Source: a virus. From it: a stretch of DNA of 64,000 nt. The stretch lies in the IMG/VR virus record IMGVR_UViG_3300048597_000133, positions 1 through 64,000 of that record. One strand, given 5' to 3'. Positions within the stretch are counted from its first letter, which is position 1. Each line of letters opens with the position of its first letter. Below, piece by piece: positions 1 to 6,006 of the stretch. The notes under the pieces are model-generated. The model was not told the DNA's origin. It made no database searches and saw only the letters and a list, made by a program, of their open reading frames with translations. Made by a program: the position numbers and the translations under genes.

Positions 1-3000
1 TTGCTTTCACCTAGAACAATATCAAATGACACTGCTAAGAACAAAAGAGAAGATAACTATCTTAAGTCCCCTACATTGCCGAAAGACATTAAGGGGGCTG
101 AGGTTGCTGTTACCTCTAGACCATTAGAAGGCAGTAAAAAAGATGAAGATAAAAAAGAAGAGAAGGCTTGGTATGAAGGCTTTTTTGAGGGATTAGCTCA
201 GATGGGTCGTGATATGACCAATACCATTAATAAAGCTGCTGACTATGTTGGGGACTTAATTGGAGACGCTGTAGGAGCTATTGGGTCTTTAATAACAGGA
301 GATTATACTCCTAATGTAAGCAAGGAGTTCGAGGAGGCCGCCAGACGTACATCTGCAAACATAGGCATACCCTATGAATATTTGATGGCCGTGATGGGGT
401 TTGAAACTGGTGGCACATTTAGCCCCTCAGAACGGAATATGGCAGGTAGTGGCGCCACTGGTTTGATACAGTTTATGCCTTCTACAGCTAGAGATATGTT
501 TGGTATAAGCACAGACCAAATGGCTTCTATGTCACAAATAGAGCAACTAGCCTACGTAGAAAAATACTACAAGAATGTATTAAATGGAAGACAGGCTTCT
601 ACCCTGACAGACGCTTATATGGTGGTTCTTTACCCTGCCGCTGTAGGAAAAGGAGATGACTATACTTTATTTCGGTCTGGTACTACTGCATATAGACAGA
701 ATGCAGGACTAGATGTAAATAAAGATGGTACGGTTACTGCCGGAGAAGCTACAGAGAAAGTTAAACAATATTTACCAAGGTCTGGTGATTCTAGAGATGC
801 CTCTAAGAACGGACCTAGTAAAAGTTATTCTCCTATGTCTGTCAATAAAGGTTCTTTTTTAGATGACTCTCCTAAAGGGTCTTATGACTACACTCTATCT
901 AGAAATGGTAAAACTAATGTAGAAATTCCAGCGCCTTTCAGTGGTGTTGTAATTAGTGCTCTACCTGAATCTAAATCGGGTGGGTATGGGGAGGACCTTC
1001 TTATATATGACCCATCTACTAATCTTACTCATCGTCTTGCCCATAACCAAAGACTTTTAGTGAAAGAAGGAGATACCTTTGTTAAGGGTCAGCCAATAGC
1101 AATACAAGGAAGTACTGGGCGCAGCAGGGGTACGCATATACATCATGAAGTACATAAGGGAAAAATTAATTATGCTCAGTCTGTGGGTGCAAGACCACAA
1201 ATGATCAGAGATAGGTCACAAAGTCGTCCTATTGTAGAAGGAATAATTAATGAATGGACCGCTGGGTCTAAAGGAGGAGAAACATCTAGTGCTAAGTCTG
1301 TAAATGATAAACCTAAAAGCTCAGTTCGTAAGGGTTGGATAACTCCTAAGTCAACTAGTGGCTCTGATTGGGTTAATAGCTCTCCTACTAGTCAGAATAA
1401 TATCCCCAGAAAAATAGCAATAGCCGCCGGTCATTGGAATACTTATGGACAAGGAGCACCAGGAGAGCAAGCCTGGAATAAACTAGTAGCTCAACAAATC
1501 GCCAATACTGGTAAAGAACGTGGCTTTGAAGTTGACTATATAGAGCCTTCGAAAACTAAAAAGATGAGTCTAGCTGAAGTAGGAGCCGCCTTAGCAGCTA
1601 AAGAGTCTCAAGGATATTACGCCGTAGAAATACACGCTGACAGAAATGATAGCGCTGGTAGGTCTGGCGTAATACCAGGTTCTAAAGTAGACGCTGCAGA
1701 TATAGCTCTAGCTAAAGTATTTGGTTCTTTCTCTAAAGGACAATACTCTGGCTATGCTTTACCACGTCAAGGGGTGTCTCTTCTAGAAACTGTCGGTATG
1801 GCTGAAGTTAATAAAATGACTCCAGAAGAACAAGCCAAATTTGCTAAAGAAATAGCTGCAATGTTCTTTGACGCTTTGGGGGGAGCTGAGCCTTCTGATA
1901 CTCCCTTTGACCCTAATCAGTTATATAGCGACGATGTTGACGTCTATAAATACCAAAGACCACAACCCCAACGCAGAAAAGTAACCTCTTGGGCAGAACG
2001 AGAACGTAAAGCTCAAGAACGTATCAAGTCTGGACAGGTTAAAAGAGAGTCCTACCAAACAAACCCCAGCCGTCTACGTAATAATGGCGTTAGACCTGGT
2101 GGTAGACCGGCAGAACCCAATCCACAAGCTAAAGCGGACTTGGATATAAAAGAGATAGTGGGTTCTAATTCAGGCTCTAAAGAGTTAGCTATAGTAGCTT
2201 CCGCTGGTGGGGACTTATCTGGATTAATACCTCAAGTCACGGCTTTAGCACCAGAACCTCAAGTTAAGAAACAGACTCCGGCGAAAGTAGAGCTTCCCAG
2301 AGAAATACGTTCTAGGGAAGTTGCTACAGTAGCAGAGACGAAAGGTAGTGTTGGTTATGGCGGCGGCTCAGGTGGGTCTAGCGGGGCGGGCGGTCAATCA
2401 TCCACAGTATCCGGTGTTGTATACACCCAAGGTGATTTAGGTTCCCCTGGAGCATTTCACTTTGATATTAAACGTGTAGAAGGCGGCTTCTATGAGCGTG
2501 AATATCTAGACAACTACGTCCAAGTAAATGGTAAACCCATTGGTTCAGGTATAACAGTTAAAGGAGGTGAGTATGGAGCACCCAGAAAATATGGCGGTCA
2601 TGGTGGTTGGGATTATGCTTTTGGTGATAAGAATGCAGGGCTGACTTTAGTCAACGGCGCCCGCTTAATTAGTGTCACACCAACCAAAACATATGGAGAT
2701 AAGTTAATCTTCCAATTACCTACTGGAGAACAGTTTGCTATTATCCATGGTCGTGCCACCCAATTAGGACGTGAGTCTGCCGGGGCAGAAGGAGCCTATG
2801 CAGCTAATGTCCCTAGTGATAGCGGCGGTGGGGGGCAAATGATGATGAGAAGGCAACCTCCTCGTAGAAAAGTAACCTCTTGGGCGGAACGAGAACGCCG
2901 AGCTCTAGAACGCATACAGTCTGGTCAAGTCGTAAGGCAATCTTACCGGACCAACTCTAGTCGTATAGCTAAGAATAACCAACAAAGCAAAGAAGATGAC

Positions 3001-3591
3001 AAAGGATTATTCGGGTTTATACAAATCCCAAATCTGTTTAAACGAAATACCACACTACCCTCTAAACCTACTAAGGATGATAATCAGTCCTTTACGCCAC
3101 CTGTAGGTAAGAAGCTTGATATTAAATCTCAAGTGTCTCAAAAAGACATTGTTAAAGCCATACCTACAAATAGTAAAGACTTAGATGTAGATGAAATACT
3201 AGACATCAAAGTCAGTCAGGCCTCTGACGCGGCAATGTCTAAAGCCGAAGTGGTAGGTAATGTTATAGCTGAAGCCGCCGCCAAAGCTCACAAACAGAAA
3301 AAAGAAAGCACCCCAGAAAAAGCAGTTAAGCATATTACTAATGTCCAACGTCCGGCAGAAACTGCACAAAATGTCAGCAGCTATACCCGGAGCATAACTA
3401 GTAACATAACCCGCGCTACCAAAACACAACCTGTCTATCAGCCAGACAACGACCAAAATGTCATTTTAGTTAGTTCTCAGATAGACCAGACTATGGTCAA
3501 TGTCAACGTTGCTAATAGTGGGATGAGGTCCCCATGCTCTGGACAGATGGCTGGTAAGAAACAAAGAGTACAAGGACCATGTGTTGCTTAA
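1..3591 (+). CDS. Large multi-domain peptidoglycan hydrolase, probably virion-associated (lysozyme/SLT-like, M23 peptidase, amidase_3-like, second M23-like domain); probably 5'-truncated by the window edge
   Basis: FETGGTF..SGATGLIQFMP (transglycosylase-like); GGYG..AHN..GSTGRSRGTHIHHE (M23); IAIAAGH..E..VEIHAD (amidase_3); HGGWDYA..YG..IIHG (M23-like). ORF is open from base 1. Confidence 0.8.
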   Translation: MLSPRTISNDTAKNKREDNYLKSPTLPKDIKGAEVAVTSRPLEGSKKDEDKKEEKAWYEGFFEGLAQMGRDMTNTINKAADYVGDLIGDAVGAIGSLITGDYTPNVSKEFEEAARRTSANIGIPYEYLMAVMGFETGGTFSPSERNMAGSGATGLIQFMPSTARDMFGISTDQMASMSQIEQLAYVEKYYKNVLNGRQASTLTDAYMVVLYPAAVGKGDDYTLFRSGTTAYRQNAGLDVNKDGTVTAGEATEKVKQYLPRSGDSRDASKNGPSKSYSPMSVNKGSFLDDSPKGSYDYTLSRNGKTNVEIPAPFSGVVISALPESKSGGYGEDLLIYDPSTNLTHRLAHNQRLLVKEGDTFVKGQPIAIQGSTGRSRGTHIHHEVHKGKINYAQSVGARPQMIRDRSQSRPIVEGIINEWTAGSKGGETSSAKSVNDKPKSSVRKGWITPKSTSGSDWVNSSPTSQNNIPRKIAIAAGHWNTYGQGAPGEQAWNKLVAQQIANTGKERGFEVDYIEPSKTKKMSLAEVGAALAAKESQGYYAVEIHADRNDSAGRSGVIPGSKVDAADIALAKVFGSFSKGQYSGYALPRQGVSLLETVGMAEVNKMTPEEQAKFAKEIAAMFFDALGGAEPSDTPFDPNQLYSDDVDVYKYQRPQPQRRKVTSWAERERKAQERIKSGQVKRESYQTNPSRLRNNGVRPGGRPAEPNPQAKADLDIKEIVGSNSGSKELAIVASAGGDLSGLIPQVTALAPEPQVKKQTPAKVELPREIRSREVATVAETKGSVGYGGGSGGSSGAGGQSSTVSGVVYTQGDLGSPGAFHFDIKRVEGGFYEREYLDNYVQVNGKPIGSGITVKGGEYGAPRKYGGHGGWDYAFGDKNAGLTLVNGARLISVTPTKTYGDKLIFQLPTGEQFAIIHGRATQLGRESAGAEGAYAANVPSDSGGGGQMMMRRQPPRRKVTSWAERERRALERIQSGQVVRQSYRTNSSRIAKNNQQSKEDDKGLFGFIQIPNLFKRNTTLPSKPTKDDNQSFTPPVGKKLDIKSQVSQKDIVKAIPTNSKDLDVDEILDIKVSQASDAAMSKAEVVGNVIAEAAAKAHKQKKESTPEKAVKHITNVQRPAETAQNVSSYTRSITSNITRATKTQPVYQPDNDQNVILVSSQIDQTMVNVNVANSGMRSPCSGQMAGKKQRVQGPCVA
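1963..2073 (+). repeat. Copy 1 of a 37-aa internal repeat (copy 2 at 2854-2964)
   Basis: QPQRRKVTSWAERERKAQERIKSGQVKRESYQTNPSR vs QPPRRKVTSWAERERRALERIQSGQVVRQSYRTNSSR; shared DNA core agaaaagtaacctcttgggc(a/g)gaacgagaacg. Confidence 0.95.
2854..2964 (+). repeat. Copy 2 of the 37-aa internal repeat
   Basis: See 1963-2073. Confidence 0.95.
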
Positions 3592-3674
3592 TGTTAGGGG
3601 CCTGCAAAGGGGCCGGCCTAGACAGTCTCAGACTAATTAACTGGTAATTATGAATTGGATTTCTGTTACACATT

Positions 3675-3708
3675 AAAAGCGGCACTATGTCTGCTTACAG
3701 TACCGCTT
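3675..3708 (-). terminator. Probable intrinsic terminator downstream of the tRNA half
   Basis: Minus strand AAGCGGTACTG..TAGTGCCGCTT hairpin ending in TTTT. Confidence 0.55.
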
Positions 3709-3813
3709 AGTCAGGTGTTATTCTTTGATATACAATGACTTTGAGGATTTCACCTGACGACATTAATCTGTCACTGTGTGGGAATTCTCGGGTGGATACC
3801 GCACATACGTGCT

Positions 3814-3852
3814 CTTGTAAGGCAGGCGCTCTACCAACTGAGCTAATCGCCC
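3814..3852 (-). other. 5' half of tRNA-Val(UAC); candidate attP core
   Basis: Minus strand GGGCGATTAGCTCAGTTGGTAGAGCGCCTGCCTTACAAG gives acceptor 5' strand, D arm, anticodon 5' stem and loop. Similarity stops there, no GTTCGA T-arm follows, and it lies about 70 nt from the integrase start. Confidence 0.85.
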
Positions 3853-3869
3853 TTTACTCGTGCTTAACC

Positions 3870-3878
3870 ACTATATCA
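3870..3878 (-). promoter_or_regulatory. Extended -10 promoter for the tRNA half
   Basis: TGATATAGT (TGnTATAGT) on the minus strand, 17 nt upstream of tRNA G1. Confidence 0.55.
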
Positions 3879-3921
3879 TAGGTTACCGTTTTCTACTAAC
3901 TTTTCAACGGGGTATCTCAAA

Positions 3922-5064
3922 ATGGCCGGTCAACCCAGAATCAAATTAGATGTTTTACCAGTATACCGAGGAATGGCTTCTTTATATTCAAGGGGTAATT
4001 CTTTGTCTGTAAGGCTACCAGATAAGTTAGGATTGGGACGTTATAAATTTATATCTTTAGGGTTACCAGCTAACGCAGAAGGAATAGGGCGGGCCATACA
4101 GATAGTCAACGACCTAAACAGAGATATAATCTACGACCGTTTTGATTTCACGCTAGAAAAATATTTACCTACCGCAGCTATAACAGAGCCACCAATTGAC
4201 TTATACGAATTGTGGTGTAAATATTGTGATTATAAGGAGGGTAAAGTTAGAGAGTCTACTCTAGAGTATCTACGCGTCACAATAGGCAGTAAGATACGCC
4301 TAATTCCTATACTTGACATAACTAAATCTGCAGCTATAAGTAAATGGGTAATATCTCATAATACAAAGGATTACGGCATTAGAGTATTAGCTAAAATTTC
4401 TGCTTTATACGAGTGGTCTATTCTCCATGAGTTGATTAACTCTAAAGAGGCTTTAAATCCATATAAAGGACATTTAGATAAAGCACGGAGCAATGTTATT
4501 GATATAGACGAAGAGCCCGACGAAGCCCGCCCACTATCTGACAGTGAGGTTAACAGCCTTATTACTGGGATAAGGCCTGTATTCCGTAACTTCGTAAAGT
4601 ATTGCTTTTTAACCGGATGTCGCCCTTCAGAAGGGATTGGTCTAGAATGGCGTGATGTAAGAGAAGACCATCTTTTTCTGGGTCGCACTTTACGGTGTAA
4701 GAACGGTAAAGTCTTTATGTCGCCTAAGAGTAAGAATAACCGTAACTGGCTATTTCCTAAAACAGAAGAGTTAGCTGACTTATTAGATAAAACTCCTAAG
4801 TTAAGTGACCAATGGGTATTCGCTCAAGATAAACCTAAAATCCAATATTTGTCTTATGACTCTTACTATAAAAACTGGAAAAAGATAATGCCAGAAGAGA
4901 CTAGTCCTTATAACACTAGAGATACATTTATTAGCCGGCAGATTTCATTAGGAATGCCGCCGGCGGTCGTAGCCAAGTGGGTTGATAACTCAGTCAGAGT
5001 TATAGAAAAGCACTACCTAAAAATAGGTCTAGATGTAGTACCCTACTCATTACCAGCTTTATAG
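3922..5064 (+). CDS. int: Tyrosine integrase/recombinase
   Basis: TGCRPSE (Arg I), YNTRDTF (Y/H-x-x-R), WVDNS, KHY (catalytic Tyr); arm-binding-like N-terminus. Confidence 0.9.
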   Translation: MAGQPRIKLDVLPVYRGMASLYSRGNSLSVRLPDKLGLGRYKFISLGLPANAEGIGRAIQIVNDLNRDIIYDRFDFTLEKYLPTAAITEPPIDLYELWCKYCDYKEGKVRESTLEYLRVTIGSKIRLIPILDITKSAAISKWVISHNTKDYGIRVLAKISALYEWSILHELINSKEALNPYKGHLDKARSNVIDIDEEPDEARPLSDSEVNSLITGIRPVFRNFVKYCFLTGCRPSEGIGLEWRDVREDHLFLGRTLRCKNGKVFMSPKSKNNRNWLFPKTEELADLLDKTPKLSDQWVFAQDKPKIQYLSYDSYYKNWKKIMPEETSPYNTRDTFISRQISLGMPPAVVAKWVDNSVRVIEKHYLKIGLDVVPYSLPAL

Positions 5065-5774
5065 ACAGTAGGTCTAGTAGGAAACTTAGGGAAAGACAAC
5101 GGAGGATTAGACTGAGAATCGGCTTCTTTCTTCTTAGGGGTGAACTTATAAGTAAAGCGACCAGACTTAACAGCCAACCGTTCTTGTTCTAGCTTCTGTA
5201 AGGCCGCCCTGGCAGCGTCCTTCCATAAATGTCGGTCAGCACGACTGGGGCTAACACGCAAGTCTAATAGCCGCGCCTTGTCCCCTTCTTTCATGTTGGA
5301 TAAGTACTGACTGTAGATGTGGTCGTTATATTCATAACTGGTAGTATCTGAGAGCCCGAACTTATCTTGGTCTAAATCAGCTTTGACCCTGTTGTAGATA
5401 TAGTCAGATATTTCTAACAGCTCACTGCGAGACCCGAATTTAAGTTCTGCTCCGGTAACCAATGGGTGCGGCACAGAGCCTCTTTTAACAATGCTATCTT
5501 TCTCTACCGGTACAGAGGGTGTGGGACTAACCTCAACGATGTTATTGAGCACTTCTGCTAAGACGTTGAGGGATTTGTAGTCTTCAGAGTTTACGGAGTC
5601 TACAGCTAATTCCTTAAGGCAGGTTAGGAGTTTGGTCTGGCACGTCTGAGACAGACTCTCTAGTAGCGTGCTCAAAGTAGGATCGAATGAGGACTTGTGC
5701 ATAACGGTTATTAAGTAAAGATTGCGTAAGTTTAACTTTTTGGTCTGGCAGTCCAAGGCAGAGGATTTGCCCAA
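5043..5774 (-). CDS. Hypothetical protein (start may be MHKS downstream)
   Basis: 243-aa ORF, no recognised motif. Confidence 0.6.
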   Translation of the reverse strand: MGKSSALDCQTKKLNLRNLYLITVMHKSSFDPTLSTLLESLSQTCQTKLLTCLKELAVDSVNSEDYKSLNVLAEVLNNIVEVSPTPSVPVEKDSIVKRGSVPHPLVTGAELKFGSRSELLEISDYIYNRVKADLDQDKFGLSDTTSYEYNDHIYSQYLSNMKEGDKARLLDLRVSPSRADRHLWKDAARAALQKLEQERLAVKSGRFTYKFTPKKKEADSQSNPPLSFPKFPTRPTVYKAGNE

Positions 5775-6006
5775 ATGGCGGCGTACCTGATATGGCTGCG
5801 ATCAGACCTTTCTCGCCACCGTCTTTATATAGTTCAATGACTTGACCAACATAAGGACTTTCTAGGTTTAGCCAATCATAAAACCTTGGCGCGGTTTCAT
5901 ATCGACGACGAAGGGACACAGCGTATGTACCGCTATGCATCCTTTTAATGTTCTGTTTAGTTCTCGGAGTAGAGGTTAGGTTTAAAACCATATATTAAAG
6001 GTGTTT

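Follow-up and report, generated by a model that had tools for sequence, protein, structure and literature searches.

The question raised by this locus is why the 5' half of a tRNA-Val(UAC) gene should lie next to an integrase gene in a viral genome. The window, the 64,000-nucleotide stretch of DNA that was analysed, is the first 64 kb of the linear record IMGVR_UViG_3300048597_000133 (97,522 bp; CheckV completeness estimate ~56%). The answer reached here from the sequence is that the integrase module and the 5'-half tRNA-Val(UAC) probably constitute a functional attP of reversed polarity, carried by a free large cyanophage. The features on which the argument draws are as follows.

1–3591, plus strand: ORF of >1196 aa, open at its 5' end, with M23 peptidase and SLT domains, matches to baseplate-hub and peptidase PHROGs, and a weak amidase_3 region.
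3672–3708, minus strand: terminator-like hairpin of 12 bp (stem 3708–3677) with an 8-nt loop and a short U tract (dG -17.1 kcal/mol, z -3.5).
3710–3758, minus strand: hairpin with a perfect 8-bp stem, GUCAGGUG/CACCUGAC (dG -12, z -2.9).
3779–3813, minus strand: apparent remnant of a decayed tRNA 3' half, with CCCA at its end, at the start of the putative P' arm (MAFFT alignment, gapped score).
3814–3852, minus strand: nt 1–39 of tRNA-Val(UAC), an exact cyanobacterial match, with the anticodon loop (3821–3815) as the predicted crossover region.
3853–3899, minus strand: copy of the sequence upstream of the host tRNA-Val gene, on the P-arm side of the putative attP (BLASTN and global alignment to Synechocystis salina).
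3878–3870, minus strand: extended -10 TGATATAGT (TGaTATAGT), 17 nt before G1, with TG-n-TAT invariant in six host loci.
3922–5064, plus strand: tyrosine integrase of 380 aa, apparently intact (PF00589, PHROG 1).

On the minus strand, the sequence from 3852 to 3814 reads GGGCGAT TA GCTC AGTTGGTA GAGC G CCTGC CTTACAA G, which comprises the 5' strand of the acceptor stem, the whole D arm, the 5' strand of the anticodon stem, the loop CTTACAA and G39, with the anticodon UAC at 3819–3817. The preliminary description of this DNA had noted a tRNA-Val(UAC) fragment extending from G1 into the anticodon loop, and this was found to be exact over 39 nt. The first 38 nt were found without mismatch in 94 stretches of species-representative genomes (one genome per species), nearly all from cyanobacteria, where ARAGORN calls the host copies tRNA-Val(tac), and G39 of the phage fragment also agrees with the host genes. 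Such exact agreement over 38 nt with cyanobacterial tRNA-Val is evidently not due to chance. The exact 38-mer was not found in other viral contigs. ARAGORN detected no complete tRNA in the window or in the whole 97.5-kb record, and the Rfam tRNA model scored 18.1 bits on 3779–3852, under the 29-bit cut-off. A matching 3' half elsewhere in the phage, which had been named at the outset as an observation that would speak against an attP, was not found in the 97.5 kb, where ungapped comparison with the two host-type 3' halves gave 19/35 at best, a chance-level value.

The 94 host stretches were compared with the phage using BLASTN, and most share just the 39–43 nt of the tRNA. The best shared block, 79 nt at 96% identity (window 3814–3892), was with the Synechocystis salina LEGE 00031 locus (L023), and three other Synechocystis-like loci share 67–70 nt at 87–88%. 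In a global alignment, similarity to the S. salina locus reaches about -47, with 43 of the 47 upstream nucleotides identical, and TG-n-TAT is found at the same distance from G1 in 6/6 host tRNA-Val loci aligned with the phage. TGaTATAGT was not listed by a consensus promoter scan because it has no -35 hexamer. The putative promoter upstream of the tRNA fragment is clearly a copy of the host tRNA-Val promoter, as judged from this alignment; the TGnTATAGT motif reported earlier is present, but it is not of phage type and is not the phage's own promoter as had been supposed.

The S. salina locus is an empty, native site, as five other Synechocystis-like genomes share its upstream gene in synteny, the tRNA-Val 5' half occurs only once in the S. 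salina LEGE 00031 genome, and no integrase homologue was found near the locus. The comparison with cyanobacterial tRNA-Val genes that had been suggested for host prediction points to a Synechocystis salina-like cyanobacterium as the predicted host, and other Synechocystis genomes agree less well with the attP than the S. salina locus does. A 697-nt contig (L046) in the bin Nodosilinea sp. BSH.14 also holds a tRNA-Val locus of Synechocystis type, together with the syntenic gene upstream. This locus is unlike the bin's other copy of tRNA-Val (L030), and the contig is probably misbinned.

The sequence that follows the break (3813–3779) was aligned with the Synechocystis-type 3' half using MAFFT, and 16/35 positions are identical, for which a plain binomial test gives p of about 0.02. 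The gapped alignment gave p values of 0.006 against shuffles and 0.0016 against random segments of the phage genome. The 74-nt tRNA-like stretch (3779–3852) does not fold as a tRNA (z -0.14). Relative to the host there are 0/39 changes in the 5' half, 4/47 upstream and 19/35 in the 3' half, with the switch at the anticodon loop, a sharp asymmetry not expected if a captured gene had decayed uniformly. The attP looks like a copy of a whole tRNA gene with a perfect 5' half and a decayed 3' half, and not like a bare 5' half.

Beyond the remnant, the inverted pair 3710–3717/3751–3758 given in the preliminary description is present and extends to 15 nt at 80% complementarity; an 8-bp inverted pair at such spacing is itself only marginally above chance. 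The 12-bp hairpin begins 106 nt past the break. The sequence after it is UUAAUGU, and of just 4 U in total, two belong to the stem. A canonical terminator scan did not call the hairpin because of this weak U tract. The terminator placed ~105 nt downstream in the earlier account is therefore matched by a strong hairpin, but its U tract is weak and non-canonical and it is best described as a putative terminator. The U run is exclusive to the minus-strand transcript, so that the orientation would be right to stop transcripts going in the direction of the tRNA. A promoter-like sequence, TAGTCA-17-TACAAT (9/12), was also seen on the plus strand in the P' arm (window 3708–3736), pointing across the core to int. 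Should int be transcribed from this site, the two would become separated on integration.

The divergent integrase gene noted earlier is encoded on the plus strand and matches both PF00589 (29.9 bits, just above the 27.1 cut-off) and PHROG 1 (6.7e-28). It is divergent from the tRNA fragment and lies 69 nt from G1. Conservation of residues ahead of Met18 supports 3922 as the start, as does the match to a relative in another virus record (L216, see below), which begins at residue 1. In an alignment of 10 clade members that share 39–43% identity with the phage integrase, R234, R333, W353 and Y365 never vary, and all ten have Tyr330 at the position of the first His of HxxR. The profile of the clade matches Tn1549 Int structures at 2e-07, with Arg234 (TGCRPSE) and Arg333 aligned with Tn1549 Int arginines; the structure alignment ends before Trp353 and Tyr365. 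The closest homologues are P0002–P0010, which include P0008 in Synechocystis sp. CACIAM 05, and P0008 was absent from the 89 family genomes searched. When viral contigs were queried with the single protein no close integrase relative was found, whereas a query with the alignment yielded L216.

The attachment sites of integrase relatives were examined in ~75 integrase-homologue loci from cyanobacterial genomes, metagenomes and viral contigs. Where a complete tRNA gene lies beside int, its 3' end is always towards the element, in tandem or convergent orientation, and in several relatives without a complete tRNA a tRNA fragment is divergent from int. The G209 genome has a complete tRNA-Pro(UGG) and, 2.8 kb away, its 3' part repeated over 47 nt; in G188 the 3' part of tRNA-Gly(UCC) is likewise repeated, over 45 nt and 5.2 kb from the complete gene. 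In both, int (30–31% identity to the phage integrase) adjoins the 3' fragment and is divergent from it, and the direct repeats begin at nt 26–30, within the 5' side of the anticodon stem. These repeat boundaries, together with the layout, show that anticodon loops are the integration sites of this integrase sub-family, that int lies to the tRNA-5' side of the core, and that the part normally retained is the 3' one.

The closest relative among the metagenomic loci examined (L136; integrase 41% identity) is arranged in this way too, its fragment being nt ~28–76 of tRNA-Ala(UGC) with a vestigial 5' part. In virus record G375 (locus L216; integrase 40% identity), int is divergent from a complete, centrally diverged tRNA-Ala(UGC). 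This tRNA-Ala(UGC)-like gene (L216:5830–5903) scores 46.9 bits and has two mismatches in the anticodon stem, and the copy, including ~42 nt upstream, is 85% identical overall to a host locus in G013. The phage shares the int-to-core geometry of G209, G188, L136 and L216/G375 but keeps the 5' side of the tRNA. A sample of 401 cyanobacterial genomes contained no integrase of >33% identity and no further 5'-retaining site.

Other members of the integrase family were found beside a different kind of sequence. Some integrase homologues in cyanobacterial genomes adjoin short matches to the tmRNA 3' end, at L256:1330–1347, L259:1265–1282 and L261:2861–2877, suggesting that part of the family may target ssrA instead of tRNA genes.

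Virus record G375 (216,563 bp; 96% complete) is also related to the phage outside the integrase. Several phage genes share 50–70% aa identity with it, and the ribonucleotide reductases are 60–62% identical. The int cassette of G375 is located among genes that map to 87–93 kb of the phage record, indicating that the module is placed differently in the two phages. No close isolated relative of the phage was found, the best ribonucleotide reductase match among GenBank phages being at 50% identity. The ORF at 1–3591 probably encodes a virion-associated cell-wall hydrolase. To the right of the integrase are ORFs without an assigned function and then the ribonucleotide reductase alpha gene (RNR alpha). 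The earlier view that both flanks are phage-like agrees with the baseplate-hub and peptidase PHROG matches on the left and ribonucleotide reductase on the right. Phage genes on both sides, together with a decayed, non-host 3' half after the break, indicate the unintegrated form, and the phage is, on this gene content, a free large cyanophage of at least 97.5 kb.

The reading of the region as an attP, already advanced in the preliminary description, is strengthened by the end of host identity at nt 39, by the repeats starting at nt 26–30 in elements with homologous integrases, and by the common geometry. A crossover in the anticodon loop would fit both boundaries, that of the phage and that of G209 and G188. 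The predicted event is strand exchange by the tyrosine integrase within the anticodon loop of tRNA-Val(UAC) in a Synechocystis-like host. Written in the direction of the tRNA, attP would be P-O-P' and attB B-O-B', with integration giving B-O-P' and P-O-B'. Here, P would consist of int, the promoter copy and nt 1–31, O of the anticodon loop, and P' of the decayed 3' half and the hairpins.

At attR (P-O-B'), located beside int, the phage promoter and phage 5' half would be joined to the host 3' half, and the tRNA-Val formed would be wild-type because the phage 5' half is identical to that of the host. This junction would read the phage-specific upstream variant, then ...CTTACAAGCAGGATGTCGGCGG. 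At attL (B-O-P'), the host promoter and host 5' half would lead into the decayed 3' half, the hairpins and the terminator-like stem. The attL product would be the host promoter and 5' half joined to GAGCACGTATG..., the junction would read the host upstream sequence, then ...CCTTACAAGAGCACGTATGTGCGG, and the 12-bp hairpin would terminate read-through from the host promoter. Recombination at this site, the exact crossover and termination of read-through by the hairpin are steps that we infer from the sequence.

Several observations count against the attP reading. The phage site is the only 5'-retaining one among the ~75 integrase-homologue loci, and the 3' strand of the anticodon stem is unconserved in the attP, making the usual symmetric core-binding sites imperfect. 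No arm-type direct or inverted repeats above shuffled expectation were found around the core (3592–3921). Stable lysogeny is also not assured for a large phage with its own ribonucleotide reductase and a 216-kb relative. The record itself, at ~56% estimated completeness, covers little more than half of the genome. Searches of species-representative genomes and viral contigs yielded no integrated copy with attL and attR repeats. Only two broken copies of tRNA-Val were present in the species-representative genomes, both with other phage arms. None of the public sequencing runs contains the phage, the matches holding just 4% of its words, probably from the tRNA part. The polarity itself is already described: for recombination with the 5'-distal part of tRNA genes, PMC6563490 cites Zhao & Williams 2002 (also referenced in PMC1635311) and archaeal cases, and calls it 'considerably less frequent' than 3' recombination. 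The preliminary description likewise noted that most attPs targeting tRNA genes carry the 3' part.

The tRNA-Val(UAC) gene is occupied by other prophages in two cyanobacteria, Leptolyngbya sp. CCNP1308 (G001; C4:35833–110432, loci L008/L079), with a prophage of 74.5 kb, and Tildeniella torsiva (G002; C37:65849–135587, loci L073/L043), with one of 69.7 kb. These prophages are related to each other and include tail-collar and HNH endonuclease genes, and tblastx found them to be unrelated to the phage. Both are bounded by 78–82-bp direct repeats of the tRNA-Val promoter and 5' half, with the upstream copy of the repeat broken just past the anticodon loop. No match to PF00589 or PF00239, and no recognisable integrase or resolvase, was found between the repeats. 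Repeats consisting of the promoter and 5' half indicate that cyanobacteria tolerate the 5'-retaining polarity at tRNA-Val.

Other explanations of the locus were considered. The tRNA-Val sequence could be a dead relic, picked up by aberrant excision and now decaying, with an integrase that is inactive or uses another site. The clearly decayed 3' half would be expected of such a relic, as would the lack of any lysogen or junction among the sequences searched and of arm-type repeats above chance, and the tRNA-Ala copy beside int in G375 is likewise diverged in its centre. However, the decay is uneven, switching exactly at the sublocation used by the family for crossover, the fragment is in the usual family geometry only 69 nt from an apparently intact integrase, and no other tRNA-like site is present in the 97.5-kb record. 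Given the sharply asymmetric conservation, a relic is unlikely. Alternatively, integration could occur by host homologous recombination of the Campbell type over ~86 bp of homology, with the integrase dispensable. The homology block of 79–86 nt is long for a core site, and the 70–75-kb prophages in Leptolyngbya and Tildeniella have repeats of 78–82 bp with no PF00589 or PF00239 match between them. This is nevertheless very unlikely, as the right edge of the homology coincides with the anticodon loop, which is also the case for the G209 and G188 elements that carry integrases, and the integrase is conserved and adjacent; ~80 bp is also a short substrate for RecA-type recombination.

The region could also produce a transcript of ~180 nt, containing the 5' half, the pseudo 3' half and the hairpins, that acts as a tRNA-like small RNA, for example a decoy, independently of integration. 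A conserved extended -10 lies 17 nt upstream, a 213-nt transcript folds better than 200/200 shuffles (z -2.9), and the transcript would end at the strong hairpin. Against this, the tRNA-like stretch has no cloverleaf fold (z -0.14), its Rfam score is under the cut-off, no conserved counterpart was found in other viral contigs, and an attP already accounts for the layout beside int, making a small RNA highly improbable as the explanation. A split or intron-interrupted tRNA-Val with its 3' half elsewhere is barely conceivable, as the chance-level match reported above is the best in the record, no group I or group II intron match was obtained in 3000–6000 at E <= 10, and a decayed 3' half directly follows the break. 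Within the 97.5 kb, this arrangement is excluded by the lack of both a 3' half elsewhere and an intron-family match.

If the region is a reversed attP, its origin can be sought among the related sites. Aberrant excision of a classically oriented ancestor would bring the host promoter and 5' half beside int, and the result would be a whole-gene attP, the state seen in G375, in which either half would then be dispensable. The phage would represent a lineage whose 3' half decayed. An origin by capture of a whole gene followed by decay of the unneeded half is likely, though it is reconstructed from three related states and not from a tested phylogeny. The sites form a series in which L136, G209 and G188 keep the 3' part, G375 has a whole diverged copy, and the phage has the promoter and 5' half. 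We tentatively suggest that, in one clade that spans large cyanophages and cyanobacterial islands, attP polarity may have been flipped via an intermediate with a whole tRNA gene plus promoter. If so, the series would be a caught-in-the-act view of how attPs of reversed orientation arise.

The phage is a clear added example of the rare 5'-retaining attP, a kind already described, and, set beside its relatives, it points to a route by which tRNA attachment sites can change polarity. It also provides a specific host prediction and a testable integration site for an uncultured lineage of large cyanophages that has no close isolated relative. With its 80-nt attP and a target that is a single-copy tRNA gene in the Synechocystis group, the integrase might be developed into an integration tool for this model genus.

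In the tRNA-dependent lysogeny of actinobacteriophages, a common core of ~10 bp destroys the host tRNA and a separate, complete phage tRNA complements it (PMC10865867). The phage resembles this system in having a tyrosine integrase that would act on a tRNA gene without the usual 3' replacement. However, no complete tRNA is present in the phage record, and the 5' half and promoter would rebuild the gene. Among cyanophages, P-SSP7 and S-TIP37 have int/attP modules that match host tRNA-Leu, and for S-TIP37 integration using int and attP was shown experimentally, although no lysogens formed and stable lysogeny was not obtained (PMC8776855). Integration without lysogens in S-TIP37 urges caution in equating the module of the phage with lysogeny. 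They resemble the phage in that a genome of lytic-type gene content has an integrase as well as a perfect match to a host tRNA, but they are small and T7-like, and their attP is downstream of int and corresponds to a region of tRNA-Leu.

The classical tRNA integrases that use the anticodon-loop sublocation were reportedly described by Williams in 2002 (Nucleic Acids Res 30:866). The phage has in common with G209 and G188 a homologous tyrosine integrase, a boundary in the anticodon stem-loop, and a divergent int on the tRNA-5' side. The tRNA-Pro and tRNA-Gly elements of G209 and G188, which we take to represent that class, keep nt ~27–76 and have the rebuilt tRNA far from int, whereas the phage keeps nt 1–39 and the promoter, and the rebuilt tRNA would be beside int.

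Elements that integrate into tRNA genes in the reverse orientation, with the rare 5'-retaining polarity, are said to have been described by Zhao and Williams in 2002 (J Bacteriol 184:859). Like these, the phage carries the 5'-distal part of the tRNA, so that a promoter must come along with it. Unlike them, it is a free cyanophage of at least 97.5 kb with a relative of 216 kb. It is further set apart by a promoter copied from the host and by a 3' half that is still visible in decayed form, and its close integrase relatives have the opposite polarity.
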